From the sequence record PQ821640: a stretch of DNA of 64,000 nt. One strand, written 5' to 3'. Below are positions 13,226 to 31,299 of this stretch, piece by piece. Every line of letters begins with the position of its first letter. The stretch's first letter is position 1. The position numbers were made by a program, and so were the translations under genes. Source of the DNA: Escherichia phage SD2. The notes beneath the pieces were generated by a model, which was given only the letters and a program-made list of their open reading frames with translations, had not been told where the DNA came from and made no database searches.

Positions 13226-14386
13226 TTAGTAAGAACGACCACCAAACACATACTCTGTGTAGTTTTTACGTTCTTTGTTTTTAATAACAACTTCAATGTT
13301 GTTACCTTTATCATCGGTGAACATAAAGTGATAGCCGTCACCACCCATTGTACGAATGTGTTTTTCATCATACGTTAGCAAGATACGGTCTACACCCCAG
13401 TAGTAGTCACCTTCTTCATCTTTATCTTCTACGGTAACAATCCCTTCCATTTCAGGAAGATGCTCTTCACCTAGTTTATGGTCTACAGCTACAACATAAC
13501 GATTACCGCTAAACAAACCTTGTGCTGTCATACCGTCAATATCGGTATCTGACGAAACATCTCCTGTACGATCTACACCGTTAACTTTCAGAAGTTTAAC
13601 CTCTTTTGCAGCATAGCTGTGTTCAGTAATACTGATACCCATCAATGCAAGTGCATCAGAGAATTTGTCATTAGGGTAACGGTTAAGTTCTTCTACTAAT
13701 GACTGAACAATATCAAAGTTCAAATCCACGGAGAGATTGTAAAGCGTTTCAAAATCTGGTAAGAAGGCTTTGTTCTCCAGATTTTTAGCCAGATAATCAT
13801 CCATAGTAGCTTTAGGTAGTTTCTTATAGCTAAAACTGTAGAAAATACGGCTAGGACGATTACGCAAAAATTCTGATACATAACCATCATTTTTAGTCAA
13901 TACAAACAGTTTGTCGTAGCCACCAACACCATCCAGCAGGGTAAGCAAACCATCTTGTGCATCTTTTTCAGCATACAATTTATCAAATTCATCGATCATA
14001 ATCATCACAGGTTGTGTGATTTTAGACATAAAATTGATAAAGCCTTCACCATTAAAAGCACTACCGATAGAAATAGTAGGAATACCCATTTCACGAAGAG
14101 CAGAAGACAGCATTTTAGCTTGCAAAGTTTTACCGCTACCTTTCGTACCCTCAAGGAGAACACCTGTGTTTTTACCTTTACGGCTAAGGAACGTCTTGAT
14201 AATACGTTCTGATTTATCATCAGTATCACCGTATGTTACTGAAGGGACTTCCATATCGTTTTTAGGATACAAGAAGAACTCGCCACTTTGAGTAACACCT
14301 ACACCAAAAGTTCCTGCTGGAATTTCTTCAATATCTGTACCAGATTTCTGACGCAGGAAGATTTGATTGCCGAATACTGTAAACAT
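13226..14386 (-). CDS. AAA-type ATPase (paralog A)
   Basis: 386 aa; Walker A GTKGSGKT, Walker B IMIDEFDK; paralog of 30172-31299 product. Confidence 0.7.
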   Translation of the reverse strand: MFTVFGNQIFLRQKSGTDIEEIPAGTFGVGVTQSGEFFLYPKNDMEVPSVTYGDTDDKSERIIKTFLSRKGKNTGVLLEGTKGSGKTLQAKMLSSALREMGIPTISIGSAFNGEGFINFMSKITQPVMIMIDEFDKLYAEKDAQDGLLTLLDGVGGYDKLFVLTKNDGYVSEFLRNRPSRIFYSFSYKKLPKATMDDYLAKNLENKAFLPDFETLYNLSVDLNFDIVQSLVEELNRYPNDKFSDALALMGISITEHSYAAKEVKLLKVNGVDRTGDVSSDTDIDGMTAQGLFSGNRYVVAVDHKLGEEHLPEMEGIVTVEDKDEEGDYYWGVDRILLTYDEKHIRTMGGDGYHFMFTDDKGNNIEVVIKNKERKNYTEYVFGGRSY

Positions 14387-14406
14387 AGTTTTCTCCTCTA
14401 TTTAAT

Positions 14407-14877
14407 TTAGTCAGATTCCCAAATGTTGTCTTTCTTAACCCACATTCGTTGATTATCTGAACCTCTATAACGTTTCGTTGTTGGTTGATTCATATCATAC
14501 TTACCATCTATCACTATGTCAACCAGTTTTTTAATTTTCTCTGGAATTTCTTCAAAAAGATATCCTGTATATAAGACAATATCTTTTTTGTTTCCAAAAC
14601 AATCTCTTACCTTCTCAAGAACATACTCTACAGTGTCAATGTTCTCTTTGTCAAGAGGTTCACCACCTAAAACTGTTAATCCTTTAATGAAAGGTCGAGA
14701 TAAATCTTCCAAGATAAGATCTAATGTTTCAGTAGTGAACTCTTGTCCGTAGTTATACGACCAGGCTTTCTGGTTAAAGCAGCCACGGCAACCGTGGCTA
14801 CAACCGCTCACCCACAAAGAGCATCTTACACCGTCACCGTTGAGCATGTCAACAGGTTCATATCCGGCGTAATTCAA
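14407..14877 (-). CDS. nrdG: anaerobic ribonucleotide reductase activating protein (radical SAM)
   Basis: 156 aa; CSHGCRGC radical-SAM cluster motif; 4-nt overlap with nrdD. Confidence 0.85.
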   Translation of the reverse strand: MNYAGYEPVDMLNGDGVRCSLWVSGCSHGCRGCFNQKAWSYNYGQEFTTETLDLILEDLSRPFIKGLTVLGGEPLDKENIDTVEYVLEKVRDCFGNKKDIVLYTGYLFEEIPEKIKKLVDIVIDGKYDMNQPTTKRYRGSDNQRMWVKKDNIWESD

Positions 14878-15845
14878 AAATGTTTCTCCCTTTCTAGTAC
14901 CTCTTGCATTTTACCTTTATTATAAGGGCGAGAGTTAGGGGCAGAAAGGTATCCTGACACTCTTCTGATCACAGATATGGATTCTTCTTCATGATTACCG
15001 CAACTTGGACACTCGAAGCCTTTAGCCGTTGCTTTAAATTCACCATGAAAACCACATTTGAAACACTGATCTACAGGTTGGTTCACGCCAAAATAAGGAA
15101 TTTTATTGTAGGCATAATCTACAAGAGTTTCCAGTGCTTGCAAGTTATTTTTAAGGTTTGGTGTTTCTACATAACCTATGTTCCCACCATTACTAATTTG
15201 TGCAAAACCTTCCTCATAATCCCACTTTTGGAACGGGGTAGTGTGCATCCATACAGGTTGATGGAAAGAGTTTGTCAAGTAGTCACGATCAATAGAGCCA
15301 GGATAGCGATCATTTAACGCTTTGGCAAATTTATAGCACAAGGATTCTGCTGGTGTTCCATACAAACTAAAAGCTAAACCAGAACGTTCTTTAAATGTGC
15401 AACAGATATCCTTCATATATTGAAGGATGTTTTTACCCATTGCTTTTGGATTGGTGTTGTTTGGGTATAAAATCTCCATAGCTTCTGCTAAACCTACATA
15501 ACCGATACTAATAGAGGCATAACCACCTTCAAATAGTTTACCAATCTCTTCATTAGCTTCTAGTCGAGCTAAAGCCCCTTCCATAAACAATGTAGGGTTT
15601 TGAGATGCTTTGGTATGTCTAATACGGTTAACACGTAGCATATGTGCCTTATACGCCATCTCCATATGTTGTTCCAACAGTTCAGTAAATAAGATGCCCT
15701 TTTCACGGGACTCTGCTGCAATGATAGGTAAGTTTAAAGAAACTACGCCTAAGTTGAAACGACCATCATATTTTTCACCTTGCTCTGTTGCATAGTATGA
15801 CAAGAAACTTCTACACATTATGTTCAAAGTGGCTCGCAAGGCCAC
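14874..15845 (-). CDS. nrdD: anaerobic ribonucleoside-triphosphate reductase, 3' exon (C-terminal half)
   Basis: C-terminal glycyl-radical-like IRRVSGYL, zinc ribbon CFKCGF...CPSCGN; 5' limit is a splice junction not resolved here (track start is GTG). Confidence 0.8.
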   Translation of the reverse strand: MALRATLNIMCRSFLSYYATEQGEKYDGRFNLGVVSLNLPIIAAESREKGILFTELLEQHMEMAYKAHMLRVNRIRHTKASQNPTLFMEGALARLEANEEIGKLFEGGYASISIGYVGLAEAMEILYPNNTNPKAMGKNILQYMKDICCTFKERSGLAFSLYGTPAESLCYKFAKALNDRYPGSIDRDYLTNSFHQPVWMHTTPFQKWDYEEGFAQISNGGNIGYVETPNLKNNLQALETLVDYAYNKIPYFGVNQPVDQCFKCGFHGEFKATAKGFECPSCGNHEEESISVIRRVSGYLSAPNSRPYNKGKMQEVLEREKHF

Positions 15846-16575
15846 TCCCGCACCATTACGTGCTGCTGCATGTCACCATGCAGATCAGACTATATCTTCA
15901 TGCTTAAAGCATGTCTACCATTTGGGGTGTCATAGGCTTACACCCTACGCTGCTACATTCATCACAGCTAGTCGTTAGGCATTTCGTAACAGAACTCATA
16001 ATCATAATTATTTGGTGCTCCGCGCTTTAAGATTGCAGATATTCTTTTTCTGTCCAACCCTAAAGCGTCAGCACAACATCTCAGACTTTTAAAGTAAAAA
16101 ACTTCACCAGTAGCCTTATGAGTAGCTTTTACACTGTGACACCTTGTGTAGAAAGCATAACAGTTATTATCGTAACCCTCTTGCGTGTTGTCTGGACAAG
16201 ATCCCCACTCAAGATTGTATACACTGTTGTCTTTCCTATTGTCACCTTTATGCTTCACATAAGATAAATTGTCTGGATTGGGTAAAAACGCTTCAGCTAC
16301 AAGTCTGTGCACCCGAAAGCAAACAGTTTTCTTGTTTTTACGTATTCTGACAAGTTGGTATCCTGTGTTTATTTCTTCCCACAAGCGAAGGATTCTTTCA
16401 TCCTTATACCTAGTACAATAAACATTTCCAAGCTCGTCAATTTCATACCCTTCAAAATCACGAATTTGTTTTCTCATATCAGTACCCCCTTCTTCTGTGT
16501 TGGGAGTTCTGTTACGTTTAGCACGGGATTGTCTCGTTGAGAGTTCCCCCGTTTAGGCAGATTTTACATGAGCAG
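15846..16575 (-). mobile_element. putative group I intron interrupting nrdD, carrying HNH homing endonuclease ORF
   Basis: nrdD reading frame broken between 16576 and 15845; intervening ~730 nt contains a free-standing HNH ORF and GC-rich structured flanks; boundaries approximate. Confidence 0.6.
15968..16477 (-). CDS. HNH-family homing endonuclease (intron-encoded)
   Basis: 169 aa; YEIDELGNVY, VHRLVAEAF, DNSVYNLEW motifs; RBS AAGGGGG. Confidence 0.75.
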   Translation of the reverse strand: MRKQIRDFEGYEIDELGNVYCTRYKDERILRLWEEINTGYQLVRIRKNKKTVCFRVHRLVAEAFLPNPDNLSYVKHKGDNRKDNSVYNLEWGSCPDNTQEGYDNNCYAFYTRCHSVKATHKATGEVFYFKSLRCCADALGLDRKRISAILKRGAPNNYDYEFCYEMPND

Positions 16576-17442
16576 TTATAGTTTACCCATGCTTGTGACG
16601 CGACCATCTGAAGATCCTGTAACTTCTTTGTTTAAAGGTACAGAGATAAAATCAGGATAAATGCGTTCAGCACAACACTCCATTGCCAGTTGCTTCAAAT
16701 CATAGTTTGGATCACCAGCTTTCATGTTAACACCATCTTCCAAGAAGAAGATAACTTTAGGAAACACAGGAGTTACCCTATCTTTTCCTAATCCTTGTTT
16801 GTGCACCATTAGGTAGTTTTTAGTGATCATTCTACCAAAAGCAGAGGTATCCAAACCTAAACTAATTGTTATAAAAGGTGACTGACCATTTACACTCATT
16901 AGGGTGTTCACCTGGTAGATTAAAGTTTGCATTGCATCATAGACCTGTTTATCTACCATACGCATAGCAATATCATAATCACCAACGTCAGCATAGATTT
17001 TATTAAAACTTGCTTTAACGTATTGACTAAGCCCAGTATCAATATGTGCACAAGTTTGTCCACCATATTGGCTAGAAGCTACTGCTTGAATAATTTGAGT
17101 TAGGACAGTAGTTGCTACACCGATAGATTTTGGTTTTTCAATATGTGCATTACCAATACGGAAACCGTTCTCAAGCATATCTTGGTAATTTACCAGGCAA
17201 CAGTTAGTTAGAGGTGAGAGTAAATAATCTAAATCGTGAATGTGACCATACCCGCTTTTATGCCATTCTGCCAGATCTTCCGGTAAAATATGGGTCATTG
17301 CCATGTGCTTGCTTAGGATACCTGCTAGTAAGTCTCGGTGAGTATTAACAATCATTGCAGGTTTGTTTGCATTTTCACGAGTAAATTCTTCGGATGTTTG
17401 TTCGAGGAATCCGATTACATCCTCATATAGTTTTTGGGTCAT
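16576..17442 (-). CDS. nrdD: anaerobic ribonucleoside-triphosphate reductase, 5' exon (N-terminal half)
   Basis: Start at Met11 of track ORF with GGAGG RBS; class III RNR-like sequence; in-frame stop at 16576 lies in the presumed intron, true exon end slightly upstream. Confidence 0.7.
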   Translation of the reverse strand: MTQKLYEDVIGFLEQTSEEFTRENANKPAMIVNTHRDLLAGILSKHMAMTHILPEDLAEWHKSGYGHIHDLDYLLSPLTNCCLVNYQDMLENGFRIGNAHIEKPKSIGVATTVLTQIIQAVASSQYGGQTCAHIDTGLSQYVKASFNKIYADVGDYDIAMRMVDKQVYDAMQTLIYQVNTLMSVNGQSPFITISLGLDTSAFGRMITKNYLMVHKQGLGKDRVTPVFPKVIFFLEDGVNMKAGDPNYDLKQLAMECCAERIYPDFISVPLNKEVTGSSDGRVTSMGKL

Positions 17443-17460
17443 TAATCCTCCGTGGAAAAT

Positions 17461-17487
17461 AAAAGCCAGCATTAAGCTGGCTTTAGG
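17461..17487 (-). terminator. rho-independent terminator upstream of nrdD
   Basis: AGCCAGCATTAAGCTGGCT hairpin followed on minus strand by TTTTATTTT. Confidence 0.55.
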
Positions 17488-17531
17488 GTGGATCTTTATT
17501 TTAAATCTTTTTCGTAAGATTATCCTTGATC

Positions 17532-18482
17532 TTAGTCAAGGTTTTTGGTAATACGTGTACAACCATCAGAAGTCAAACCGTCAACTTGAGTTTCCCAAGT
17601 ACCATGAATATTTCGGAACAATGTTGTTACACCTTTTGGTTCATTAATAATGATTGCCATAACAAGTTTAGGATCGATAACAGACATAATCTTTTCCTCA
17701 ATACCCTCTGTAATAACATTATTGCGCACAATATTAATTGCATCTTCTTGTACAGTAAGAACACTTACGTTCTTAAGAGTATATACCTGCTGTGTAGTGT
17801 AAATGATACGAACATAACTTACAGAACGAGTAGGCACAGGTTTACGCGGTCGGCGAAAACGTGGTTTTGGTGAAGATTCAGTTTTACTTTCATCTTTTGA
17901 ATAATACTCCTCAAACAGTTTAGTAAATGTTTTTACATCAACTACAAACCGATCTTTCCGATATGGAGAATTCTTATGTGCACCATTAATACCACTGTTT
18001 TCATCGAAGAAAGTAATGTTTTCTTCATTTGAATACATTAGATAATGATCTGCATTTTTCCAATGTGGTTGTGGACAACGAGGATTACAAACGGAAAGCA
18101 GATAACTAATATCTTCTTCCGTGGCATCAGTATCCACGAAACACGTATTATGCACAGTCAGTTGTACTTTTTCAGCCATATCTTTTTCTTTATCCTCTTT
18201 AGCAAGATATTCAGTACGAATAATCTCCAGAAAATTTTCAGGTGTTACTTCCATAAATGTATATTCAGGATGAAGTTCCATATATTCAAATCCACAACCA
18301 TCTAACTGCTGTAGAAAGTTAGGGTAGAAGAACAAATCATTAACACTGTGAATCAGATTATTGATTTCTGCTTCAGTTGTGTAACCAAAACTCTTGTGAA
18401 TTGCTTCGTTAAGAATATGCAGGATACCCATCTCTTCTGCTGCTTTTTTAACTTCCAGTTTATTAGCGTAAAATGCAATCAT
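17532..18482 (-). CDS. hypothetical protein
   Basis: ORF track 316 aa. Confidence 0.5.
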   Translation of the reverse strand: MIAFYANKLEVKKAAEEMGILHILNEAIHKSFGYTTEAEINNLIHSVNDLFFYPNFLQQLDGCGFEYMELHPEYTFMEVTPENFLEIIRTEYLAKEDKEKDMAEKVQLTVHNTCFVDTDATEEDISYLLSVCNPRCPQPHWKNADHYLMYSNEENITFFDENSGINGAHKNSPYRKDRFVVDVKTFTKLFEEYYSKDESKTESSPKPRFRRPRKPVPTRSVSYVRIIYTTQQVYTLKNVSVLTVQEDAINIVRNNVITEGIEEKIMSVIDPKLVMAIIINEPKGVTTLFRNIHGTWETQVDGLTSDGCTRITKNLD

Positions 18483-18499
18483 TATGTTCTCCTTCTAAA

Positions 18500-18934
18500 T
18501 TAGTTTAAAATTTCTTTTGCAATGGTAGAAGCAAGTTTTCCATCATATTGATTCGGATACTCTGCTTTAAGGTGTTTCATCATATCTGGCATTTTCTTGC
18601 CTGTCAAGGCAAATTCTTCAGCAATAGCGCGAAGGTCATCTTCAGATAGCATTTCTGGTAAATATTTTTCCAGAGTGGTGATATCACGCATAGCTCGCTC
18701 ACATTTGCTAAGGGAAGCATTAACTTTCTTAAGTGAGTCTAGTTCCTCTTTAGCGTGTGCAATACCAATCTTAACAATGTTAATCATAATATCGTCTTCT
18801 GATTTGTTTAGATTTGCCTTTTGAGTACGAGCAAGGTCAAACTCACCAATAATATTAGTTAACAAAGCAAAAGCACCCTTATCGGTTGTACGTGCTAAGA
18901 TACGATCTGCTTTCATTTGTGTCACAATAGACAT
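18500..18934 (-). CDS. GatB/YqeY-domain protein
   Basis: 144 aa; C-terminal YLPEMLSEDDL...DGKLAS pattern resembles the YqeY family. Confidence 0.5.
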   Translation of the reverse strand: MSIVTQMKADRILARTTDKGAFALLTNIIGEFDLARTQKANLNKSEDDIMINIVKIGIAHAKEELDSLKKVNASLSKCERAMRDITTLEKYLPEMLSEDDLRAIAEEFALTGKKMPDMMKHLKAEYPNQYDGKLASTIAKEILN

Positions 18935-18946
18935 TCTATTCTCCTC

Positions 18947-19519
18947 TTATTTGCTAATGCTTTGAATGTTATTTACAACACGGTTTATTGCCAGTGAAGC
19001 CCTAGGCTCTGCAATACCTGTTGCATAGATATAAGGATGACCTTTTGGAGACTCCCTCATACCGAATGAACCTAATTCTAAACCATATTCATCCTCTACG
19101 TCAACCCCAATATTAGTGGGTACTAAATATGTTTTAACTCCATAATAAGTAGAGAAGAAACAACGCATAGCGTTAGCATACTCTTCAATTGTAGCATCAG
19201 GGTAGAACTCAATCAACTCCAATTTCAAGAAAATATTAAAATGGGTATCATCTAAATTTTCTTCTGTACGGTAACATGGCGTTAGTGCCATATATGGATT
19301 ACCTGCTGCAAATTCAAAACCATCCTTCTCCATTTGCAGGAAAGATTGTTCTGCACTAGCTACATAGTATTTACCGTTAGGATGCCCTAATGGGCGATCC
19401 TCTTTATTTTCTGGTAGTGTGTACGCCAGTATATCAGCATCCACGAGATATGGAACTTCTAACATTTGTGCAAATCGACCATAGTAATCAATAGCTTGAG
19501 CTATTACTGCAACATTCAT
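18947..19519 (-). CDS. hypothetical protein
   Basis: ORF track 190 aa. Confidence 0.5.
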   Translation of the reverse strand: MNVAVIAQAIDYYGRFAQMLEVPYLVDADILAYTLPENKEDRPLGHPNGKYYVASAEQSFLQMEKDGFEFAAGNPYMALTPCYRTEENLDDTHFNIFLKLELIEFYPDATIEEYANAMRCFFSTYYGVKTYLVPTNIGVDVEDEYGLELGSFGMRESPKGHPYIYATGIAEPRASLAINRVVNNIQSISK

Positions 19520-19767
19520 GATCGACCTCCATTGCGGAATGCACGTTTAGTAATGTTTGACATAGTGATCAAATCTTGAAGCGTCATAGCAGGAAAATGC
19601 TGTTCAAGAACACCTTCAACAGCGCCTACAATATCTGATAACTCAATAAGTTGCATCAGCTTGCAATCTTGATCAATAGCATCTTGAAGTTCATAAAGCT
19701 CTTCTTGAATCTTAGCAACAGAACCATATTCCTCTTTGCTAATCTCCTTCAAATGATACCCTGCCAC
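19516..19767 (-). CDS. hypothetical protein (weak MazG-like pattern)
   Basis: 83 aa; EELYELQDAI resembles MazG EExGEL motif; tentative. Confidence 0.35.
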   Translation of the reverse strand: MAGYHLKEISKEEYGSVAKIQEELYELQDAIDQDCKLMQLIELSDIVGAVEGVLEQHFPAMTLQDLITMSNITKRAFRNGGRS

Positions 19768-19777
19768 TTTAACCCCC

Positions 19778-22552
19778 TTAGTTTACCAGTTTATTTATGT
19801 CTGGTAAAAGATTTATTTCACCTAAGAAATCACCTTCACCTTCCTCTAGCCAACTTTCATATGCTTGTGCATGATTATAGTTACCATCAAAAGAATCTGC
19901 AACAAATTTTTCTACAGTTTTTCGAGATGTGCCAGCGCCAAATACACCAAGTTTAATACCATTGATCGGTAAAGTGGTGCTTGTGGGTACTTTCTCTGTT
20001 GCAACACGGTTGATATCTATAATCTCCTGTACGGTTGTATTCCATTGTAAGCATTTAACACAACGGGTGTGCGCTACATACAGTAGGTTTCGCTCTGCCT
20101 CTTCTAGTCCTACCCATTCACCAGTCTTTTTATCATAGTTGGAAGGAAAATCATTAGCAACAATAACCTGATCCCACTCCAAACCTTTAGACTTATGTGC
20201 TGTAGTCAGTGTGACTTTTGCTGTAGGAGAATTTCTATGCGTTCTAAGTGTATGTGCTATAGTGTTTGCCTTACCAGAAACTACAATGTTTAACAAGCGT
20301 TTAGCATCTGGATCAGCCTCTGCACACTCAACAAATTCATTCCAGTCTGCGTAAGGTAATACAGTTTCATGTTTTACTTTCTCAATATCTCCTCTTCGAA
20401 GAGCATTAACACTATCTACCATAGAGATAAAATCCCTGGTATCTACGTTAATAATAATTTCTTCCCCATCTGCAATACGATCCATTGCCTCCATAAGCAA
20501 GGTTAAATTCTTGCGAAAGATGATAGTGTAAGGTTTTGTATAGTCTACAACATCTGATTTGTAGCTACCTACTACAGTATCAAAGCCTTTACCAACCAAA
20601 GGATGACGCAAAGGTTCTTTATCACTTAAAATCATATTCGCAATGTTTGCCACTTTGGGGCCAAAACGGAAGCAAGCAGTTAATGGAAGCTCTGCCCCAT
20701 ACTTAGCTGTTTCAATCATCATATTAGAGCTACCTCTAAATTGATAAATGCAGTTATGGCTAAGAATTTCATTGCCAAAGAAGTTAGCAGTATCCTCTAC
20801 TTCAATATCATAATAGATACCATCACTATCTACAATGTCCACAATTTCTTCTGCCGTTACAGTATCACCATCTTTTACCAATACAGACATGCCTTTAAAC
20901 AAACCCGCTGCCGGAATTAAATTATATTTGGCGGTGTTCACAGAGGACATGCATTCTTTTAAAGATGCAAACGGAACTATTTCAAGGATCTTTTGTGCAA
21001 AACTCAATGCTTCACGATAAGAGTTGAAATATTTACGTACACGGTAACGACCTTCCAATTTAGCAACACTCACGCTTACACCTGCTTCAATGAGTGAAGC
21101 ATAGATTGGCATTTCACTTTCTGTCCACTCAAAGCTAACTTGTGTTCCTTTACAACTTTGTGCTCGCAAAGTCACTGTTAACATTTTTCTTTCATCTACT
21201 GCACAATTGATGCTGTGCCAGTGTGGATAAGCAAAATGATAATCTTTATCCTCTAAAAGTTTAAAACCATTTTGTCCGAATTGTTCAAAGATGTTGTTGA
21301 TTCTTTCTTGATTAATACCGCGTGAACTTGCTTCAAATACACAAGTAGGAATGCCATATTGTAAACTGTATGCCATTTCTTTTTCCATAGCAGCTTCACG
21401 GTTTTCAACAATATCCAACACCCATAACTTCTGTGCTTTTTCAGAACGTGTACGTTGCCCCAGTTTAGAAAAACCTTCTTTATCATCGAATTTGTTAGTG
21501 ATCCCTACTCGGAAGCCTAAATCTTTTCTCCACATTAGGTATACCACCATCTGATCATCTTTCAGAACATAAGGTGAAGCCCAAATACGATGGTTATGTG
21601 TCATATCTAAAGTCTTACCTTTAGCAGTAATAACATTCCTACCTTTTGTACGTGTAGATAAAGTCTTATTTGTTACTTTTCTAAATGTAACTTTACCGTT
21701 AGAATAAGACTCTACCTTATCACCTATTTGCAGGTCTTTCATTGTAACCTGACCATTTTCGGTATTAAGTACCGTGTTTTCTGACACACATTGGAATTCA
21801 TCACCAACTACCACAATTTGTTTTGCAGATTTAGCATTTCGCAGAATAGACAAGAATGCAGGGTTAACATCCTGGAATTCATCCCCAAAAATAATGTCAT
21901 AACCAAGATCAGCACCAGACAATTCAAACAATTTTACATAGGTGTCGTGCGTCATCAAAGTATCTGTGTTAGGGTCAATGCGCTCTCGCCACAATTGTTT
22001 TGCATACTTAACTACTTCTGTAATTAGTTTGTGTTCGTTAATACCTTTTCTTTTAATATCTGCAAGATGTACACTAGGAAAATGTTTACGGCTGATAAAA
22101 GGATCATCCGAAAATTCAAACTTACCTACGGTTTGCTTGATCATTAAACCAATCATAGCACGAGTTAAAAGTGTTTTCCCTCGTTTATCAATAAGATTAT
22201 TAATCTTAAATTTCTTTGCTATCTCACTACCTGTACCTGCAACGTTAACATACTGTCCTTCTGGTCGGGACAGTTTTGCACGTAAACGATGATCCAGGAA
22301 TTGATAGCAAATGGAATGCAATGTACGGCATTCTACATTTGGTGGCATCTTACGCCGTGCTTCTTCTGCCATGCTTTTATTGAAAGCTAAGTAAAGAATG
22401 CGATCTTCTGTACTGTTAGCCAGCAAATAAAGTGTTGACGTTTTTCCTGATCCAGATTTAGCTTGGATAGTTAAAAACCGATGATCTGGAAAAGCCTCCT
22501 TAATAGCTGTTTGCTCTTCTGTTGGAGTAAAACTCAACTCTTTCTTAGCCAT
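19778..22552 (-). CDS. UvrD-like SF1 DNA helicase interrupted by an intein
   Basis: Start at MAKKELSF (RBS AAGAGAGG); Walker A AKSGSGKTS, motif II IIFGDEFQDV; motif III GDEFQ / CIYQFRG is split by a 346-aa insertion. Confidence 0.8.
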   Translation of the reverse strand: MAKKELSFTPTEEQTAIKEAFPDHRFLTIQAKSGSGKTSTLYLLANSTEDRILYLAFNKSMAEEARRKMPPNVECRTLHSICYQFLDHRLRAKLSRPEGQYVNVAGTGSEIAKKFKINNLIDKRGKTLLTRAMIGLMIKQTVGKFEFSDDPFISRKHFPSVHLADIKRKGINEHKLITEVVKYAKQLWRERIDPNTDTLMTHDTYVKLFELSGADLGYDIIFGDEFQDVNPAFLSILRNAKSAKQIVVVGDEFQCVSENTVLNTENGQVTMKDLQIGDKVESYSNGKVTFRKVTNKTLSTRTKGRNVITAKGKTLDMTHNHRIWASPYVLKDDQMVVYLMWRKDLGFRVGITNKFDDKEGFSKLGQRTRSEKAQKLWVLDIVENREAAMEKEMAYSLQYGIPTCVFEASSRGINQERINNIFEQFGQNGFKLLEDKDYHFAYPHWHSINCAVDERKMLTVTLRAQSCKGTQVSFEWTESEMPIYASLIEAGVSVSVAKLEGRYRVRKYFNSYREALSFAQKILEIVPFASLKECMSSVNTAKYNLIPAAGLFKGMSVLVKDGDTVTAEEIVDIVDSDGIYYDIEVEDTANFFGNEILSHNCIYQFRGSSNMMIETAKYGAELPLTACFRFGPKVANIANMILSDKEPLRHPLVGKGFDTVVGSYKSDVVDYTKPYTIIFRKNLTLLMEAMDRIADGEEIIINVDTRDFISMVDSVNALRRGDIEKVKHETVLPYADWNEFVECAEADPDAKRLLNIVVSGKANTIAHTLRTHRNSPTAKVTLTTAHKSKGLEWDQVIVANDFPSNYDKKTGEWVGLEEAERNLLYVAHTRCVKCLQWNTTVQEIIDINRVATEKVPTSTTLPINGIKLGVFGAGTSRKTVEKFVADSFDGNYNHAQAYESWLEEGEGDFLGEINLLPDINKLVN
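20753..21790 (-). mobile_element. intein (about 346 aa) inside helicase motif III
   Basis: Insertion begins with Cys (CVSENTVL, Hint block A-like) and ends SHN followed by Cys (+1); flanking exteins reconstitute GDEFQCIYQFRG. Confidence 0.75.
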
Positions 22553-22553
22553 T

Positions 22554-23030
22554 TCAACCTCTCTTAATTTGTTTAACAAGCATAGGAACAAAATCTCGTT
22601 TTAAAATTTGTTCAATAATATGATCAGGTAGCTGTTGGAAATTATAATTAAACGCTACTGTCTCACCTTTAGGTGTTTCTACCCGCACATATAGCATGTT
22701 ACGAAGTTTATCCACTTGTGCTGTATATTCTAAACCATGTAATTGATGCATTGCAAACATCAAATCATCAGTTTCAGTTTGGAATCTATCCCTTGTTTGC
22801 ATCAAGGATAAGGTAAAAGGTAGATTTTCCCTAAGAGCCACCTTCTTAGGAATTAGTGAAGGGAAATACTCCCCAATAACTTCCTGTGTAAGCTGAATAC
22901 ACTCTTTTTCAAGTTGGTTTTGTTCCTTAAGTTCACAAACACTTTTTTGTAAAGTGTTAACCTCTTTTTGCAAAGCTGCTAGTTGAGCACTTAACTTTCT
23001 TTTTTGATTACGACCAAAACGTTTAGACAT
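22554..23030 (-). CDS. hypothetical coiled-coil protein
   Basis: ORF track 158 aa. Confidence 0.5.
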   Translation of the reverse strand: MSKRFGRNQKRKLSAQLAALQKEVNTLQKSVCELKEQNQLEKECIQLTQEVIGEYFPSLIPKKVALRENLPFTLSLMQTRDRFQTETDDLMFAMHQLHGLEYTAQVDKLRNMLYVRVETPKGETVAFNYNFQQLPDHIIEQILKRDFVPMLVKQIKRG

Positions 23031-23038
23031 ATTTCCCC

Positions 23039-24305: not shown

Positions 24306-24306
24306 A

Positions 24307-24657
24307 TTAACCCAAACACATCTGTGCAATCAAGCCCTGTATAAATTTATTAGCTTCTTTACTGTCGTAATCAGTTTCTTCTGGATATCCATCTCCATCG
24401 TACACAACTGTACCTTCAATATACCCTGCCTCAATTAAGGCACGGATCATATCAAATTGCCAGCATGAGTTACCAAATGGACGTTTACCATTAAAACACT
24501 CTTCTTCTCTCCATAACGTAGAGAGTAGTTGTCGGAAATATTCCCGTACAGTGACAGTACCAAGATCTGAATCCTCAAACATAACATCCAGGGCATCAGG
24601 ATTGCTTTTCTCTACATAAGGAATATATTTAACACCATTAATAGTTACATCAAGCAT
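24307..24657 (-). CDS. hypothetical protein
   Basis: ORF track 116 aa. Confidence 0.5.
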   Translation of the reverse strand: MLDVTINGVKYIPYVEKSNPDALDVMFEDSDLGTVTVREYFRQLLSTLWREEECFNGKRPFGNSCWQFDMIRALIEAGYIEGTVVYDGDGYPEETDYDSKEANKFIQGLIAQMCLG

Positions 24658-25020
24658 TTATTTCTCCTTATCATCATATTCTAGGAACATATCTGCACGA
24701 TATGCTTTACGCTCTTCAAACTTAGCAGGATCTACAACAATAAGCAATACAAGGTTAACATCTAAATACTTCTTAACAAATAGAAATAAATCTTTTCCAC
24801 AGTTAAAACCTACACCAGTATAGGCATCCCCATATTGATCTACTGATTTAATCTTCTTACTAACCGTACACTCTATGCTATTCTTTTCTTCTTGGTATAA
24901 GGCTTTCCCACCCCAATATGTAAAGAATTTAGTACCGTCAGCACCAAGTTTAAAACCTTCTGTTGCATGTCCAGCAAATGAAAGTAAACATAACCAAGTG
25001 ATCATCAGGTACTTTAGCAT
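24658..25020 (-). CDS. secreted/periplasmic hypothetical protein
   Basis: Start at MLKYLMITWLCLLSFAGHA signal peptide. Confidence 0.45.
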   Translation of the reverse strand: MLKYLMITWLCLLSFAGHATEGFKLGADGTKFFTYWGGKALYQEEKNSIECTVSKKIKSVDQYGDAYTGVGFNCGKDLFLFVKKYLDVNLVLLIVVDPAKFEERKAYRADMFLEYDDKEK

Positions 25021-25021
25021 T

Positions 25022-25504
25022 TTAACCACCCAATTGCAAATGTTTAGAAAGAACAATATCCCACTGATCACCACAACCGTTATCTATGCGGAACATAATG
25101 TACGTATCATCTTCTTCTACAACATATAACACCTCATAGGAATTACAACAGCCTTCCCAATTTTTAACAGCCTCTGGTGTATCATGTGTAAAAATTTCAT
25201 TACCATCATACGACCAAAACAAAGGGGTGAGGTTTTCGAACGTCAGTAAAGTAGGGTTTACTTCATCTTTAACTGCTTCCTCATATTCTTTATGTGTTTG
25301 TACTGCTTTAGTTAGTGTACTCATGTCTATCTCCTTTTCTCCTTCTTGACTATGAAGGATAGCGAACTCTCTAAACTCCACCTCACGCCATGTTTTCAGG
25401 TAGTGCTTTATAATTTGATCAACATCTGCCTGTTCAACGTTACTTTTCAAGCAATAGTAGTCATGGTCTTCACCCATTCTACCCCATATGCTATACATTG
25501 TCAT
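25022..25504 (-). CDS. hypothetical protein
   Basis: ORF track 160 aa. Confidence 0.5.
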   Translation of the reverse strand: MTMYSIWGRMGEDHDYYCLKSNVEQADVDQIIKHYLKTWREVEFREFAILHSQEGEKEIDMSTLTKAVQTHKEYEEAVKDEVNPTLLTFENLTPLFWSYDGNEIFTHDTPEAVKNWEGCCNSYEVLYVVEEDDTYIMFRIDNGCGDQWDIVLSKHLQLGG

Positions 25505-25772
25505 CTGATTGATCCTTCACATTGTTCTTGGCATACACAGGAATAACATCATGGTGATCTTTATTACTTTCGTCTGTTAAAGCCCAAAACAACTTACCTG
25601 CCGGATGTTTAAAGATGTAAGCAATAGGTTCCTCTTCCTGTGCTTCTTTGCTACGGATGCCATCCCGCCAGGCAAGCCAAGTGTAGATCATCATCTCTTG
25701 ACGTTCTTCTTCATTAGGCCACAGATGGGGTAGAAAGTTTTTATCAAACCATTGCTTAAATTCTTCAGTCAT
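25491..25772 (-). CDS. hypothetical protein
   Basis: ORF track 93 aa. Confidence 0.45.
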   Translation of the reverse strand: MTEEFKQWFDKNFLPHLWPNEEERQEMMIYTWLAWRDGIRSKEAQEEEPIAYIFKHPAGKLFWALTDESNKDHHDVIPVYAKNNVKDQSDDNV

Positions 25773-25782
25773 AGTCTACTCC

Positions 25783-25947
25783 TTAGCGTACAAAGTTAAC
25801 TTCTGCTTCTTTCAACTTTGACACTTCTACATAACCACCATGATCATCTTTAATCCATTCTTTTCCTTTACGGATGATAACAGGGTAGGTAGAGTGAGTA
25901 AGTTTAGGTACAGATCTTTTTGTTTTAGTGATAGAAATGTTTTGCAT
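25783..25947 (-). CDS. small hypothetical protein
   Basis: Manually found ~54 aa ORF with AAGGAG RBS; coordinates approximate. Confidence 0.35.
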   Translation of the reverse strand: MQNISITKTKRSVPKLTHSTYPVIIRKGKEWIKDDHGGYVEVSKLKEAEVNFVR

Positions 25948-26007
25948 AGTAGTCTCCTTAGTAAATTTTACATAGAGTCTAGATTATTTAGTAGGTAGAG
26001 TCAATAA

Positions 26008-26274
26008 CTAATTACTGTTAGATCTGTACTCTGTCTTCCATTCACAATGGTAAACTTCAACAGGTTCTAACTTCCAGTGTTCAGGAACTAGTTCAGGACA
26101 ATATCTACAAAAGAGAAATAGATAGATAACTAAGACAGGTATTAAATAGTAAAATGGTATACGATCATAACCATACTTACGAGATAACATGTAGACATAT
26201 AGATAGGGTATAACAATTAATCCTATAACTATAAGTAAGAAGAGAAGTATAAACCTTAGTGTAGTAACATCCAT
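26008..26274 (-). CDS. small membrane protein
   Basis: ORF track 88 aa, two TM segments. Confidence 0.45.
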   Translation of the reverse strand: MDVTTLRFILLFLLIVIGLIVIPYLYVYMLSRKYGYDRIPFYYLIPVLVIYLFLFCRYCPELVPEHWKLEPVEVYHCEWKTEYRSNSN

Positions 26275-26293
26275 AGTATTCTCCTATACAGTA

Positions 26294-26413
26294 ATATACT
26301 CTGTTCCTGCCCCTCCATGAGTGACAGGAACAATATCTATAGAGAATACTAACTCGCTTCGCTCGTCACCTTTCAGGTTTAGGGTAGCATGTTTTTCTGA
26401 AAAAGTCAATACT
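26294..26413 (+). repeat. conserved noncoding element, copy A (hairpin + CTCGCTNTCGCTCG + TTAGGGTAGCATGTTTTT + GAAAAGT)
   Basis: About 70-120 bp shared with 51664-51760 in the same orientation; intergenic. Confidence 0.5.
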
Positions 26414-26438
26414 CTCCACAAAACTTTACAAAATACTT

Positions 26439-26711
26439 TTACATAGGTACAACAGAGTCTGTTTTGAAGTCGTACATATGATTTACACCTGTGATTTTTG
26501 ACATAGAGATTGCACGTTTAGCACCTGCAATTACCTGGTCTGTCTTCTTAATCTCTTCACGGAACTTACGTACAGTTAGAGAGAAGAAACGATGATCCAT
26601 CCATTGACGATTCACACGATCACGCTTGAAGTGACGGAAATCTTCAATCTGTTTATTGCGCAATCGGCGCAGTACATGCAATAATTTATAGTAAGGGTGT
26701 TTATTTTTCAT
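26439..26711 (-). CDS. hypothetical basic protein
   Basis: ORF track 90 aa. Confidence 0.45.
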   Translation of the reverse strand: MKNKHPYYKLLHVLRRLRNKQIEDFRHFKRDRVNRQWMDHRFFSLTVRKFREEIKKTDQVIAGAKRAISMSKITGVNHMYDFKTDSVVPM

Positions 26712-26714
26712 AAT

Positions 26715-27143
26715 TTATTCTCCAAATCGAAAATCGTCAATATCATCAAACCATACACAATGGCGAGTCCTTTCTTTTTCTGTTGCAGACATTGTTTCAA
26801 CAGCTTTAGGACTAAGCACAACAGGAATGTAACGAACAGGTCGTTCATAATAGTAGCCATACTTTTCTGTATTAGCTGCCTCAAAGACTTTACGGCGTTC
26901 TTCAAGATCTTCTATGGTGAATCCTACCATATAACCATCATGTTTGCTACCCCATCCTTCCTCACTTTCAACAATCGGGATATAAAAGCCGTTACGCGTC
27001 CCTGACGCTGGTTCCTCTTGAGCCTGAAGGCAAGCCTCCCATCCTGCTTTAAAGACGTTATAGAGCGATTTACGCACGTTATGAGTGCCGCTTTCGCTTG
27101 CTGGATAGAGTTCATTAAACTTGTCTTGGATTTGTTGTGTCAT
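26715..27143 (-). CDS. hypothetical protein
   Basis: ORF track 142 aa. Confidence 0.5.
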   Translation of the reverse strand: MTQQIQDKFNELYPASESGTHNVRKSLYNVFKAGWEACLQAQEEPASGTRNGFYIPIVESEEGWGSKHDGYMVGFTIEDLEERRKVFEAANTEKYGYYYERPVRYIPVVLSPKAVETMSATEKERTRHCVWFDDIDDFRFGE

Positions 27144-27286
27144 ACTCGCCCCTTAGTGATTATTTGACCAGCTAAACAAATAGCTTGTAGTACAATAAAG
27201 AAGTAGCCTAATTTTACACTACCCAATACCCAGAATGCAATGTTTGCAAACAAACAAAAAGTAATATTAAGTCTAAAGAATAACAT

Positions 27287-27487
27287 TTAATCCCCTTCAT
27301 ATTTAGGTAAAGGCATATATGCCACAATGGGAGGGTAATCAAAGTGAAAATGATGGTTCACCACAATAATCTTACCAGACATACTTTTATGCACTTCACA
27401 ATACCCTTTTCCACCATCTTCCATTACCACCACATACTCACCTAGTGGGATATCGTATGGATCTTCTACTTTTACCCATTCTGTCAT
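27287..27487 (-). CDS. hypothetical protein
   Basis: Track frame, start at internal Met overlapping upstream stop (ATGA). Confidence 0.4.
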   Translation of the reverse strand: MTEWVKVEDPYDIPLGEYVVVMEDGGKGYCEVHKSMSGKIIVVNHHFHFDYPPIVAYMPLPKYEGD

Positions 27488-27639
27488 TTTGTAGACTCCT
27501 CGTAGTAAGGTAAAGCCCTGATCAGTTGTTCTGAAGTGCCATTTTGCACCCACGTAACACCATTGTCAACAGAAACATACCCTTTTTTGTCAATAAATTT
27601 ACGCAGACAGCCAGTGAACTTATTTTTGTAGATAACCAT
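27484..27639 (-). CDS. small hypothetical protein
   Basis: Manually found ~51 aa ORF with AAGGAG RBS; approximate. Confidence 0.35.
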   Translation of the reverse strand: MVIYKNKFTGCLRKFIDKKGYVSVDNGVTWVQNGTSEQLIRALPYYEESTK

Positions 27640-27651
27640 CTTTACTCCTTG

Positions 27652-28005
27652 TTACATCCACAGGTTATGAAAATACTTAGCAAACAAAATACGACCTTCT
27701 AAACGATCTTGCCGTTGTTTTTCATTAACTTCTTCTGGTGGAGTTGAGTCCTTAAAAGAAGACTCCATTTTTTCAAGAATTTCTAACCAGTGTTCTGCTG
27801 CTCGTTCTTCCATATAAGGTAGATAGTCACCTTTAGCGTGTGGGTACATCCGACGAAGTAACCCACTAGGAATTTTAACATTGTTTGTGGCTATCACTTT
27901 TGCACGATACGCAGAAAGTGCATTGTAGATCAGTTTACTTAGTGTCACATCCAGATCAAGAAGATCACTCTCTTCAAATTGAATTTCATCGTGTACAATT
28001 TTCAT
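27652..28005 (-). CDS. hypothetical protein
   Basis: ORF track 117 aa. Confidence 0.5.
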   Translation of the reverse strand: MKIVHDEIQFEESDLLDLDVTLSKLIYNALSAYRAKVIATNNVKIPSGLLRRMYPHAKGDYLPYMEERAAEHWLEILEKMESSFKDSTPPEEVNEKQRQDRLEGRILFAKYFHNLWM

Positions 28006-28289
28006 CGTGCCTTCTCCCGATCTGCATCTAATTTCAACAAGAAATCTGTATACTCTTCCGAACCTTGGTGTAAAAACATGTGATAAGAGCTTACCAGTTT
28101 CTTCGTTGTCGTATAACGTTCCATTTCCCCAACAACACCTCCACCTAGTGTGTAGAGCACAATACCTTCAACTCCAACATAGGTTACTACTTCAACCAAG
28201 TCTGTGTTATCCCAATAGTAGTTAGGTGACACAATAAGATCGCCCACTGCCAGTTTAATGTTTGCTACTTCGTCTTGTGAATAATACAT
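28002..28289 (-). CDS. hypothetical protein
   Basis: ORF track 95 aa. Confidence 0.45.
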   Translation of the reverse strand: MYYSQDEVANIKLAVGDLIVSPNYYWDNTDLVEVVTYVGVEGIVLYTLGGGVVGEMERYTTTKKLVSSYHMFLHQGSEEYTDFLLKLDADREKAR

Positions 28290-28301
28290 TTGGTTCTCCT
28301 C

Positions 28302-28595
28302 TCACATTAAGACACGTTTTGTGTTGATGGGAGCATCATCAAACATGTTAAGAACATTGTCAAGCAGTTTTACTAATTCATTTGTAATTTGTTCCCTTGA
28401 ACGGGAGGAAGTGAGCACTTTGCTTTCACCAACAATATGCATAACTTTTATAGGAGCATCTAAAATGATGTTGTGCTGACGATCCTCTTCAAAAGAAGCC
28501 AACCATTTCTCATTGTTACCGTGCAAGGCTACAATCACACCAAAACCGTTAATTGTTTCAGAAATATTCTTAGTTGCTAAAGTAATGTTCATCAT
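28302..28595 (-). CDS. hypothetical protein
   Basis: ORF track 97 aa; first gene of the minus-strand block. Confidence 0.5.
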   Translation of the reverse strand: MMNITLATKNISETINGFGVIVALHGNNEKWLASFEEDRQHNIILDAPIKVMHIVGESKVLTSSRSREQITNELVKLLDNVLNMFDDAPINTKRVLM

Positions 28596-28711
28596 CTACC
28601 TCTTTTGTTACGATACACACAGAGTACCAGAAACTAATTTCAGATCAAGTATTGACATACTGTTTTATTGTGCTAATCTTAATGCATACACAAATGAGAG
28701 GAGATAAACGA

Positions 28712-29263
28712 ATGCAAAACACCGATCTGACTTGGGTAGAAGCCAAAGAAGCAATGTTAAAAGGCAAACGTGTTAAACATAAATACTTTTGCGAAGGGGA
28801 ATGGTTTGAAATGCGTAACCAATCCCTTGTAGACGAAAAAGGAAATAACATGGAACAATGGTTCAAAAATGAAATTTGGCAGGGAACAGGTTGGTCTATA
28901 GTTGAAGATCAGCCTAACTCAAGCGCACTGTTTAGCCCTATTATGTATCGCGTCATCGGTGCTTTAGTTGTTGATCACGGGATTGCAGTGGAAAAAGAAT
29001 GCTGGGAAGAGGTATCTTTTTTCAACCTGGCTTCTTATGCAAAAAGCCATATGCACTTGTTTGAAGAAGGGGGTGAATTTGTTCTTCGTATGCGCTATGG
29101 CAAAGAATTCAGATTACCACTTGATAATGATGTAGACACTGTTGTAAAATGGTTAGCAGAGCATTATGCTTACGATGCAATTTGTGGTCGCAGCTTCGGT
29201 AACGAACGCTGGGACATGATTTGTGAAAAATATGATTTTGAGCCGGAATACGGAGTTTTATAA
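28712..29263 (+). CDS. hypothetical protein
   Basis: Start at MQNTDL with RBS GAGAGGAG; track ORF trimmed. Confidence 0.5.
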   Translation: MQNTDLTWVEAKEAMLKGKRVKHKYFCEGEWFEMRNQSLVDEKGNNMEQWFKNEIWQGTGWSIVEDQPNSSALFSPIMYRVIGALVVDHGIAVEKECWEEVSFFNLASYAKSHMHLFEEGGEFVLRMRYGKEFRLPLDNDVDTVVKWLAEHYAYDAICGRSFGNERWDMICEKYDFEPEYGVL

Positions 29264-29514
29264 TGTTAAGTATCAAACCTAAAATGATAACAGCAGATGA
29301 AGCAGACTTTATTTTCAAATGTGGACGTGTATGGAGAGAATTCACAAAAGGGAATGAAGTGGTTGTTGTTGTCGAACACAAGATATCTATCCAGGATCTG
29401 TTTGGACAATATGTTGATGTTATTAAATTAGGTATTGACAAGGGTTTAGTTGAGGTGTTAACATTAGATCAAGTTGAAGCAGAGCACCTCGATAAAGTGG
29501 TGGTTGAATTTTAA
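29263..29514 (+). CDS. hypothetical protein
   Basis: ORF track 83 aa. Confidence 0.45.
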   Translation: MLSIKPKMITADEADFIFKCGRVWREFTKGNEVVVVVEHKISIQDLFGQYVDVIKLGIDKGLVEVLTLDQVEAEHLDKVVVEF

Positions 29515-29534
29515 AATACAGACGGGAGAAAGGT

Positions 29535-29708
29535 ATGAGTTTCTTTGTTACAGTATTTATGGCTATCTGGATTGTAGTCTCACTCGTTCTTTTCCTGGTG
29601 GGTTGTCTGGAAGAGATTAAGAAAGCAGTTATTTGCGGTTTCTTTGGCTTTATTATCTCTCCTGCCTGGATGTGGTTCTTCATTATGATTGGTTTCCTTA
29701 AAAGGTAA
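29535..29708 (+). CDS. small membrane protein
   Basis: Manually found ~57 aa hydrophobic ORF, RBS GGGAGAAAGG; approximate. Confidence 0.35.
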   Translation: MSFFVTVFMAIWIVVSLVLFLVGCLEEIKKAVICGFFGFIISPAWMWFFIMIGFLKR

Positions 29709-29722
29709 GTGAGGAATAAAGA

Positions 29723-30160
29723 ATGAGTAAAACAAACGCAATCGCAGATAAAGCAACGGATGTACTTCTGAACATGGTTAACGTCACTATTCAAACAATG
29801 AGTGATGTTGTGGAGTTTGGAAAACAACAAATTCCAGAAGTAATCCATCAATTACTAGTGTGGAAAGCAGTATCCGCAGGTTTATGGCAACTTTTTAGTA
29901 TTTGCTTTATGTTTATTACTTTTATTGCTGTGCGGAACCTCGTAAAAGCAATTAAAGATAAAGAATGCCTGTGGTCACGAGATCGCTATGGTGAAGTATC
30001 TGCTTTACCTATTGTTGGTCTTGTTGTCTGTGCTTTCTTTTTCTTTTTAGGATTTGTTATTTTCTTTTCGAATTTTGATTGGCTAAAAATCATTATTGCA
30101 CCAAAAGTGTATCTGATTGAATTTGCTGCTGATTTAATTCGTTCATCTCAACAAAAATAA
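29723..30160 (+). CDS. membrane protein
   Basis: ORF track 145 aa, multiple TM segments. Confidence 0.5.
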   Translation: MSKTNAIADKATDVLLNMVNVTIQTMSDVVEFGKQQIPEVIHQLLVWKAVSAGLWQLFSICFMFITFIAVRNLVKAIKDKECLWSRDRYGEVSALPIVGLVVCAFFFFLGFVIFFSNFDWLKIIIAPKVYLIEFAADLIRSSQQK

Positions 30161-30171
30161 AAGGGGTTAAA

Positions 30172-31299
30172 ATGAAATACACGATTTATGGTGATATTGT
30201 AAGTGTAAATAAAGATATGGGTGTGGAATCTAATTATCTTCCACCTGGATTCTATACTGTTAGTCGTGATCCCCTTGGCAATTATTTTTTAAGCCGTGGT
30301 AATCTAACAGGTGTACCGGATGTTCTGTATGGTGAAACAGAAAAACGAGCAAATCACGTTATCCGTACATTCCATCGCCGGAGTGCACAAGGTAAAAATA
30401 CAGGTTTGCTTCTGACAGGAACTAAGGGCAGTGGTAAAACTATGTTAGCCAAGCTCATTAGTCGTGACCTTGTAGAAGAAGGTATTCCAACTATTATGGT
30501 TACTCAAGCCTACAGTGATGCTAATTTCATTGAACTTATTAGCAAGATCACCGACAAAGCAGTGATTATTTTTGACGAGTTTGATAAAGTGTATGAGAAG
30601 AAACAAGATCAAGAAGCACTTCTCACTTTGTTAGATGGTACTGGCAGTGGTAATAAACTGTTTATTCTAACTAAAAACAGTGGCTTTATCTCTGAATTCT
30701 TTCTAAATCGTCCTAGTCGTGTGTTTTATAATTTTAATTATGATAAAATCTCACTAGAAACTATGATTGACTATTTAGATAAAAACCTGGATAACAAAGC
30801 ACACTTTGATAATTTCCAAAGACTTTGGGATGTAAGTTTAGAGTTGTCCTTTGATGTGATCCAAGGTATAGTAGAAGAACTTAATTTCTACCCTGATTTA
30901 TCCTTTAAAGAATGCATCTCTATGATGGGCGTTTCTTTGGGTGGTGGTAATAAATGGGATATCAGCAGCGTTGTTATTAATGGAAAACTTCAGAAAGTTA
31001 GCTGGGTATCTAGTTGGCATAACTTCACACCTGCAATCTTTTTAGGTGGTTCGTGCACACTAGACGTGTACTTGTCATCTCCAAGTGATGCAGACTCTAA
31101 AGAAGCCCTTGCTAATAGCTCTTACGTGGTTTTTGATGATGAAGGCGATGCTCGAATTCCATTGAATGCGACAAAAATGAAAGCAGATCTTATTACAGGC
31201 GGTAAAATCGTTGTGTTTAGTGATGATCCAGAAGATTCTTTCCGTATTGTTCTGGAACCAACTATCACCAATGGTGCAACTTTGGCAAGTGTGTTTTAA
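30172..31299 (+). CDS. AAA-type ATPase (paralog B)
   Basis: 375 aa; Walker A GTKGSGKT, Walker B IIFDEFDK; collinear similarity to 13226-14386 product. Confidence 0.7.
   Translation: MKYTIYGDIVSVNKDMGVESNYLPPGFYTVSRDPLGNYFLSRGNLTGVPDVLYGETEKRANHVIRTFHRRSAQGKNTGLLLTGTKGSGKTMLAKLISRDLVEEGIPTIMVTQAYSDANFIELISKITDKAVIIFDEFDKVYEKKQDQEALLTLLDGTGSGNKLFILTKNSGFISEFFLNRPSRVFYNFNYDKISLETMIDYLDKNLDNKAHFDNFQRLWDVSLELSFDVIQGIVEELNFYPDLSFKECISMMGVSLGGGNKWDISSVVINGKLQKVSWVSSWHNFTPAIFLGGSCTLDVYLSSPSDADSKEALANSSYVVFDDEGDARIPLNATKMKADLITGGKIVVFSDDPEDSFRIVLEPTITNGATLASVF

Follow-up and report, generated by a model that had tools for sequence, protein, structure and literature searches.

Two genes for AAA ATPases lie on opposite strands of the 64,000-nucleotide stretch of Escherichia phage SD2 DNA analysed here (sequence record PQ821640; hereafter, the window). 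Open reading frame (ORF) A (13226-14386, minus strand) encodes a protein of 386 amino acids orthologous to gp190 of phage phi92, and ORF B (30172-31299, plus strand) encodes one of 375 amino acids orthologous to phi92 gp221. Between positions 12000 and 32000 the window is 97-98% identical to phi92 and many of its relatives, identifying the phage as a phi92-like myovirus (Justusliebigvirus, Stephanstirmvirinae). B is 100% identical to gp221, and the orthologs of A in Justusliebigvirus genomes are 98-99.7% identical to it. A tblastn search of all 64 kb finds exactly two copies of the ATPase, A and B.

A and B are true, intact paralogs with a common AAA motor. In a BLASTP comparison, 254 residues align with 47% identity, 70% positives and an expectation value (E) of 1e-81, the final ~120 residues being left unaligned. 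An earlier sequence-only reading of this DNA had taken the two ORFs for AAA ATPase paralogs collinear over about 300 residues and had proposed a pairwise alignment as a check. Both ORFs are indeed present, the similarity extends beyond the Walker motifs and the collinearity holds, but the confidently aligned part is ~254 residues long. The motifs GTKGSGKT and LLTLLDG are found in both proteins, with NRPSRIFY in A and NRPSRVFY in B; the Walker B pattern (I/M)IDEFDK that had been read from both fits A (IMIDEFDK) but not B (IIFDEFDK). The paralogy is real, yet both genes were already annotated and so are visible in public records: phi92 gp190 and gp221 share the label 'ATPase; predicted AAA domain fold; putative ATPase or Zn metalloprotease', and the B ortholog in the BASEL phage JohannJBalmer is annotated as 'FtsH-like protease'. 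The phi92 RefSeq record additionally places a 'hypothetical tRNA' on the opposite strand within gp190 (window ~13658-13745, plus strand); ARAGORN reports no tRNA anywhere in the window.

Both proteins are full members of phrog_2376, a family of uncharacterised phage proteins labelled 'ATPase', with nothing to set them apart from it. Residues 1-376 of A match positions 2-359 of the 363-position family profile (E 6.6e-104) and residues 1-367 of B match positions 1-357 (E 6.6e-108). PF00004 (AAA) is the sole Pfam family seen, at 29.5 bits in A and 38.9 bits in B, both above the gathering cut-off of 21.2 bits. NCBIfam returns generic AAA+ matches only, all below threshold, and a defence-system ATPase was rejected as an identity, the PADLOC matches lying at noise level only (E ~1e-3).

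The AAA module and helical lid span residues 56-252 of A (13631-14221, minus strand) and 57-254 of B (30340-30933, plus strand). In A the motor residues are the Walker A lysine K86, the Walker B pair D132/E133, D152-G153, the sensor-1 asparagine N166 and the arginines R177 and R180 of an RPSR motif, and the lid carries the motif FD..LVEELNRYP. No variation is seen at G80, G83, G85, K86, D132, E133 and N166 in sets of 42 and 16 diverse family members, and D152-G153, R177 and R180 (A numbering) are likewise invariant across the family alignments. The second region of homology (N166...R177-P-S-R180 in A, with equivalents in B) places the arginines ~11 and 14 residues past sensor-1. HMMER aligns the RPxR arginines of both proteins with the RPGR of p97, and the spacing from sensor-1 to RPxR, read from sequence, is that of classical AAA proteins. 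The motor had earlier been described as shared, and so it proves: it is intact in both copies with all catalytic residues invariant, and the differences between A and B are greatest outside it. A degenerate or pseudogene copy was rejected as an explanation, the catalytic residues all being kept and the ratio of non-synonymous to synonymous substitution rates (dN/dS) lying at 0.013-0.094.

Searched against the PDB, the family profile finds only Cdc48/p97, VAT, NSF, Rix7, NVL, AFG2 and Pex1 among its top 60 matches (best E 1.6e-12). Structural matches of the AAA module include FtsH, and the module is structurally closest to Bcs1. Judged by its motifs, profile matches and predicted fold, the motor belongs to the classical AAA clade (Cdc48/p97, Bcs1, Rpt, FtsH). 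With Cdc48/p97/VAT, NSF and Rix7/NVL (PF00004) the phage proteins have in common Walker A and B, LLxxLDG/DG, the sensor-1 asparagine and the RPxR spacing, and their lid motif resembles GADL..LV.EA. They differ from Cdc48/p97-type proteins in having a single AAA module, a small five-strand N-terminal beta domain and an extra C-terminal beta domain, in the shorter and atypical loop at the pore-loop-1 position, and in being restricted to phages. That loop reads GSAFNG in A (G108-G113) and TQAYSD in B, with an aromatic residue at the aligned position in each (F111 in A, Y114 in B).

No transmembrane segment is seen in either protein, the maximum 19-residue Kyte-Doolittle mean being ~1.0 in both, and A and B are, by this measure, soluble. 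In net charge the AAA core is basic, and the N-terminal domain, lid and C-terminal domain are all acidic.

Terminal domains of the two proteins

AlphaFold2 models built from family alignments (mean predicted local distance difference test score, pLDDT, 84.7 for A and 84.1 for B) give the two proteins one common architecture, in which a five-strand N-terminal beta domain is followed by the AAA alpha/beta module, the helical lid, a beta-rich C-terminal domain of ~120 residues and a disordered tail. Full-length structural matches in BFVD (template modelling score 0.6-0.78 over 380-436 aligned columns) come from Erwinia, Salmonella, Agrobacterium, Proteus and Lactobacillus phages; with such diverse phages represented, the three-domain layout is characteristic of the family as a whole. 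The N-terminal domain of A (residues 1-55; 14222-14386, minus strand) is modelled with pLDDT 84-96, ends in a conserved YG motif and is conserved family-wide, distant homologs included. Its counterpart in the B model (residues 1-56; 30172-30339, plus strand) is 29% identical to it.

The C-terminal domains occupy residues 253-386 of A (13229-13630, minus strand) and 255-375 of B (30934-31296, plus strand), and their net charges are -9.8 (~-10) and -6, respectively. A domain so strongly acidic argues against DNA binding through this part of the protein. The two C-termini had been taken in the sequence-only reading for different domains. Here, however, profiles of the A-clade and B-clade C-termini align in hhalign with 90% probability (E 1.4e-6, 108 columns), the profile of an intermediate clade (P0041, P0044 and P0046) links to the A and B clades at 97% and 96.6%, a joint alignment of the two domains is collinear, and both proteins match phrog_2376 end to end. 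On these profile alignments and the models, the C-termini of A and B are one family-specific, strongly diverged domain. Divergence at the C-terminus is thus real (15% identity) but is not confined to it, as the N-terminal domain is also strongly diverged and the loop at the pore-loop-1 position has fixed differences of its own.

The C-terminal domain is also the fast-evolving part of each protein. Within the A lineage, the N-terminal part is 90% identical and the C-terminal part 47%; the corresponding values within the B lineage are ~80% and 32-60%. The non-synonymous rate of the C-terminal domain exceeds that of the motor ~7-fold in A and 2-3-fold in B, and dN/dS between the window and phi92 is 0.094 for the C-terminal domain and 0.013 for the motor. 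These rates indicate that A and B are under purifying selection, with a C-terminal domain that evolves faster yet is still constrained.

The isolated N- and C-terminal domains give no significant match to Pfam or to PDB sequences. Run against 1.84 billion representative proteins, the C-terminal profile recovers only family members, apart from partial, multi-stretch matches to long repetitive Ig-like proteins that are probably compositional. The C-terminal consensus also aligns weakly to the N-terminal beta-barrel region of Cdc48/p97 (residues ~30-90), with an i-Evalue far above 1, probably by chance.

The disordered tail (13229-13267, minus strand, in A; 31264-31296, plus strand, in B) ends in Tyr in A, where residues 374-386 have pLDDT below 50, and in Phe in B. 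Most family members finish in a tail of low confidence that carries an aromatic residue at, or no more than 4 residues from, the C-terminus (...GRSY, ...SVF, ...RVW, ...LFA, ...MFDGK). Such tails recall those by which proteasomal ATPases and HslU dock.

Relationship and distribution of the two copies

Domain by domain, identity between A and B is highest in the AAA core (55%), followed by the lid (47%), the N-terminal domain (29%) and the C-terminal domain (15%). Five of the 38 clade-fixed differences between them sit together in the loop that occupies the pore-loop-1 position; the loop consensus, conserved within each clade, is IGS(A/P)F(N/S)GE for A and VTQ(A/P)Y(S/T)DA for B. In a neighbour-joining tree built from 253 columns of the N-terminal domain, AAA module and lid, with 100 bootstraps, the A clade has 100% support and the B clade 98%, and a Rak2-like jumbo-phage clade and an intermediate clade fall between the two. 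A and B are sisters in 0/100 bootstraps. The earlier description of the pair as duplicated is therefore misleading, for although true paralogs they are not a recent pair: a recent tandem-type duplication is ruled out by the tree, which is compatible both with an old split and with the acquisition of A from another phage lineage.

Gene order shows which of the copies is the older resident. In Phapecoctavirus and in a Pseudomonas rV5-like phage, a single copy lies in the B-type position, between small ORFs and a phrog_681 endonuclease gene, with a likely NADAR gene farther along the locus. As the single copy of these related phages holds the B-type position, B is the ancestral, syntenic copy. 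A-type genes are found only in genomes that also have B, namely in Justusliebigvirus and a Klebsiella branch (two places per record, among the matches listed), and A is an additional copy, located in a gene string running from nrdD-nrdG to HAD, PRTase and Macro genes. In the Klebsiella branch, A lies upstream of a small gene and then of genes matching HAD and PRTase in size and position, without nrdDG; in Klebsiella phage phi1_175008 genes matching the TerC/Macro/PRTase_3/HAD string in size and position lie downstream of the A ortholog.

The family as a whole is widespread. One peptide pattern alone retrieves at least 527 relatives from viral contigs, and carriers include phages of Proteobacteria, Firmicutes and Bacteroidetes, the therapeutic phi92-like and rV5-like phages among them. 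Confirmed phrog_2376 members come from Bacillus, Lactococcus, Lactobacillus, Staphylococcus, Acinetobacter, Aeromonas, Salmonella and crAss-like phages, and the jumbo phages GAP32, BF, XbC2 and Atu_ph07 have homologs. In large myoviruses the ATPase gene lies among small early-type ORFs and is often followed by a nuclease gene.

No universal neighbour, and hence no conserved partner gene, emerges across 75 viral-metagenome loci. The loci belong for the most part to one broad lineage, and genes that recur beside the ATPase in them encode rIIA, rIIB, a Macro-domain protein, NAMPT, NadM-Nudix, a GDSL hydrolase and an NT5C-type nucleotidase. In IMG/VR loci L015-L094, NAMPT is directly upstream of the ATPase in 7 loci, and NadM-Nudix, Macro and rIIA/rIIB are frequent flanks; in Salmonella phage 7-11 (L004), genes for phosphoribosyl pyrophosphate (PRPP) synthetase and NAMPT lie ~4 kb downstream of the ATPase. 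The neighbours in the window are as first described (nrdG, HAD, PRTase_3 and TerC by A; the CapR/T5orf172 protein and NADAR by B), to which a Macro-domain gene near A can be added, NADAR being two genes from B. An NAD+/ADP-ribose theme around A and B is suggestive, but could reflect mere co-location in an early or auxiliary part of the genome. Promoter scans give background-level signals that are uninformative on timing.

Possible functions of the ATPases

We favour, at a probability of about one half, a reading in which each ATPase is a soluble ring that remodels or unfolds a protein client using ATP, with A and B differing in that client. The invariant trans-acting arginines point to ring assembly, and A and B would each form a ring in the manner of other classical AAA proteins. 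The loop at the pore-loop-1 position would be the means by which ATP hydrolysis pulls on or remodels the client, the N-terminal domain may engage the client together with that loop, and the fast-evolving C-terminal domain and tail might contact a lineage-specific partner. That A and B have two substrate specificities, as proposed from the sequence alone, is a reasonable inference, strengthened by the clade-fixed differences at the pore-loop-1 position and by an N-terminal domain only 29% identical between the copies. With the fixed loop differences and the strong divergence of both terminal domains, A and B most likely have different clients or partners and would be non-redundant.

Several observations weigh against this reading. 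At the pore-loop-1 position the loop is short, and its fit to an aromatic-hydrophobic-Gly pattern is loose (F-N-G in A, Y-S-D in B). Fast evolution of the C-terminal domain would fit relaxed constraint without a change of specificity, and literature searches on function and essentiality returned no client, partner, phenotype or experimental paper on the family. In addition, in some small phages (crAss-like, Staphylococcus and Acinetobacter) the family gene lies within a replication and recombination module.

This last point favours a role for phrog_2376 as an accessory ATPase of DNA replication or recombination, loading or remodelling a helicase, clamp or recombinase, with A and B serving two DNA transactions. 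Members in a crAss-like phage, Staphylococcus Sextaecvirus and an Acinetobacter phage lie between primase/helicase/polymerase and exonuclease/resolvase genes, A itself sits in a string of nucleotide-metabolism and helicase genes, endonuclease and exonuclease genes are frequent neighbours of the family, and profile searches link the proteins weakly to the 'clamp loader' phrog_168 (E 3e-5 and 1e-8, against 1e-104 for the family's own profile), to DnaC-like loaders and to Hda. The nucleases may, however, be mere homing endonucleases, and most large phages place the gene among small early-type ORFs outside the replication module. The proteins themselves fit such a role poorly: RPxR and LLxxLDG are classical AAA motifs; set against clamp loaders and DnaC-like loaders (phrog_168, phrog_50), the arginines are spaced as in the classical clade, unlike an SRC motif, and in place of a helical clamp-loader collar or a DNA-binding domain there is an acidic, beta-rich C-terminal domain. 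Since the PDB top 60 of the family profile also holds only classical-clade protein remodellers and none of these loaders, we consider a replication role unlikely. Rather more doubtful still is a single machine in which A and B are mixed in one hetero-oligomeric ring, like those of Pex1/Pex6, Rpt1-6 and Yta10/12. Mixed rings are frequent among classical AAA paralogs, every A-type gene among the listed records is accompanied by a B-type gene, and the interface arginine fingers are kept in both copies; but most family-bearing phages have a single copy, which makes a homo-oligomer the ground state, the two genes are separated by 16 kb and belong to different transcription units on opposite strands, and A and B are no closer to each other than either is to copies of other phage groups.

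BCS1 orthologs have been reported in jumbo phages (Iyer et al. 2021; PMC7824862), and phrog_2376, with its homologs in GAP32, BF, XbC2 and Atu_ph07, might be this 'phage BCS1', a chaperone or translocase that moves folded proteins in membrane-proximal virion assembly. The paper gives no accession, and we think its identity with phrog_2376 improbable: A and B lack a membrane anchor and, by Pfam, a BCS1_N domain, are 15-16% identical to Bcs1 and B. subtilis YjoB, have an added C-terminal domain, and have their genes in early or metabolic regions, at a distance from the structural modules. Membership among Bcs1 orthologs was accordingly rejected, and Bcs1 is retained as the best structural analogue. 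A further proposal is that made by the annotations 'putative ATPase or Zn metalloprotease' in phi92 and 'FtsH-like protease' in JohannJBalmer, which would make A and B FtsH-like, ATP-dependent zinc metalloproteases. The AAA module does match FtsH in structure, and FtsH, like A and B, has a C-terminal domain after a classical AAA module, a likeness that is the source of the database label. Neither protein, however, has a HEXXH or HXXEH motif, a Pfam match to Peptidase_M41 or a transmembrane helix, and the domain that follows the AAA module is beta-rich, with no significant Pfam or PDB sequence match. With no membrane anchor and no protease motif the label is unsupported and was rejected; the chance that it is correct is close to negligible.

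A more specific suggestion is that the phrog_2376 proteins are unfoldases directed at host proteins early in infection, which might dismantle host defence or regulatory complexes or feed them to a host peptidase, A and B each acting on a different host factor. Docking would be via the acidic C-terminal domain and the aromatic-ended tail, reminiscent of HbYX or HslU tails, and the recurrent Macro, NADAR, NAMPT, NadM-Nudix and rIIA/B neighbours would reflect a common counter-defence role. We regard this as a long shot, albeit one that would make the family more interesting should its clients be host defence or regulatory proteins.

The paralogy is ordinary in itself and nothing yet indicates a new mechanism. 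What the present analysis adds is the clade placement, the dropping of the protease label, the recognition of one diverged C-terminal domain in place of two, the ancient standing of the copies and the fixed differences at the pore loop. Placement among classical, protein-remodelling AAA proteins removes a misleading label ('FtsH-like protease / Zn metalloprotease'), and phages with two copies, whose motors differ in pore loop, N-terminal domain and C-terminal domain, offer a natural test of how specificity is encoded.

Neighbouring elements in the window

Directly after the stop codon of A lies a terminator-like hairpin (13198-13219, minus strand) with a 9-bp stem, five G-C pairs and a T-rich tail, recognised as a consensus match only; it and the ribosome-binding site of the small gene that follows overlap. 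A similar strong hairpin with a T-rich tail is found at 17462-17484 (minus strand), so that the two flank a unit comprising nrdD, nrdG and ATPase A. Their sequences read AAAGGAGGC...GCCTCCTTT and AAAGCCAGC...GCTGGCTTT.

Within this unit an insertion divides nrdD, the gene for anaerobic ribonucleotide reductase, into ORFs at 16576-17472 and 14874-15845 (minus strand); the insertion contains an ORF for an HNH/NUMOD-type endonuclease (15968-16477). The phi92 annotation refers to a 'spliced variant' of nrdD, and the gene is uninterrupted in JohannJBalmer. The arrangement resembles a mobile intron that encodes a homing endonuclease. A UvrD/Rep-family helicase of 937 amino acids (19778-22591, minus strand) contains an insertion with Hint and intein-splicing similarity at residues ~267-613; its intein Pfam scores are slightly below the cut-offs, and the JohannJBalmer ortholog is annotated as intein-containing.

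The string downstream of A, all on the minus strand, encodes a HAD hydrolase (12162-12836), a ComF-like PRTase_3 protein (11312-12169), a Macro-domain protein (10603-11337) and TerC (9069-10046). It resembles the Ter-associated module predicted to make a nucleoside-like metabolite.

The gene after B (31374-32363, plus strand) encodes a 329 amino acid protein with CapR homology and a T5orf172 (GIY-YIG-like) domain, assigned to phrog_681 ('endonuclease'). The phi92 version of this protein has 396 amino acids, and megablast identity to phi92 ends near position 31475 of the window. Beside the conserved ATPase B, this is a variable and possibly mobile nuclease gene.

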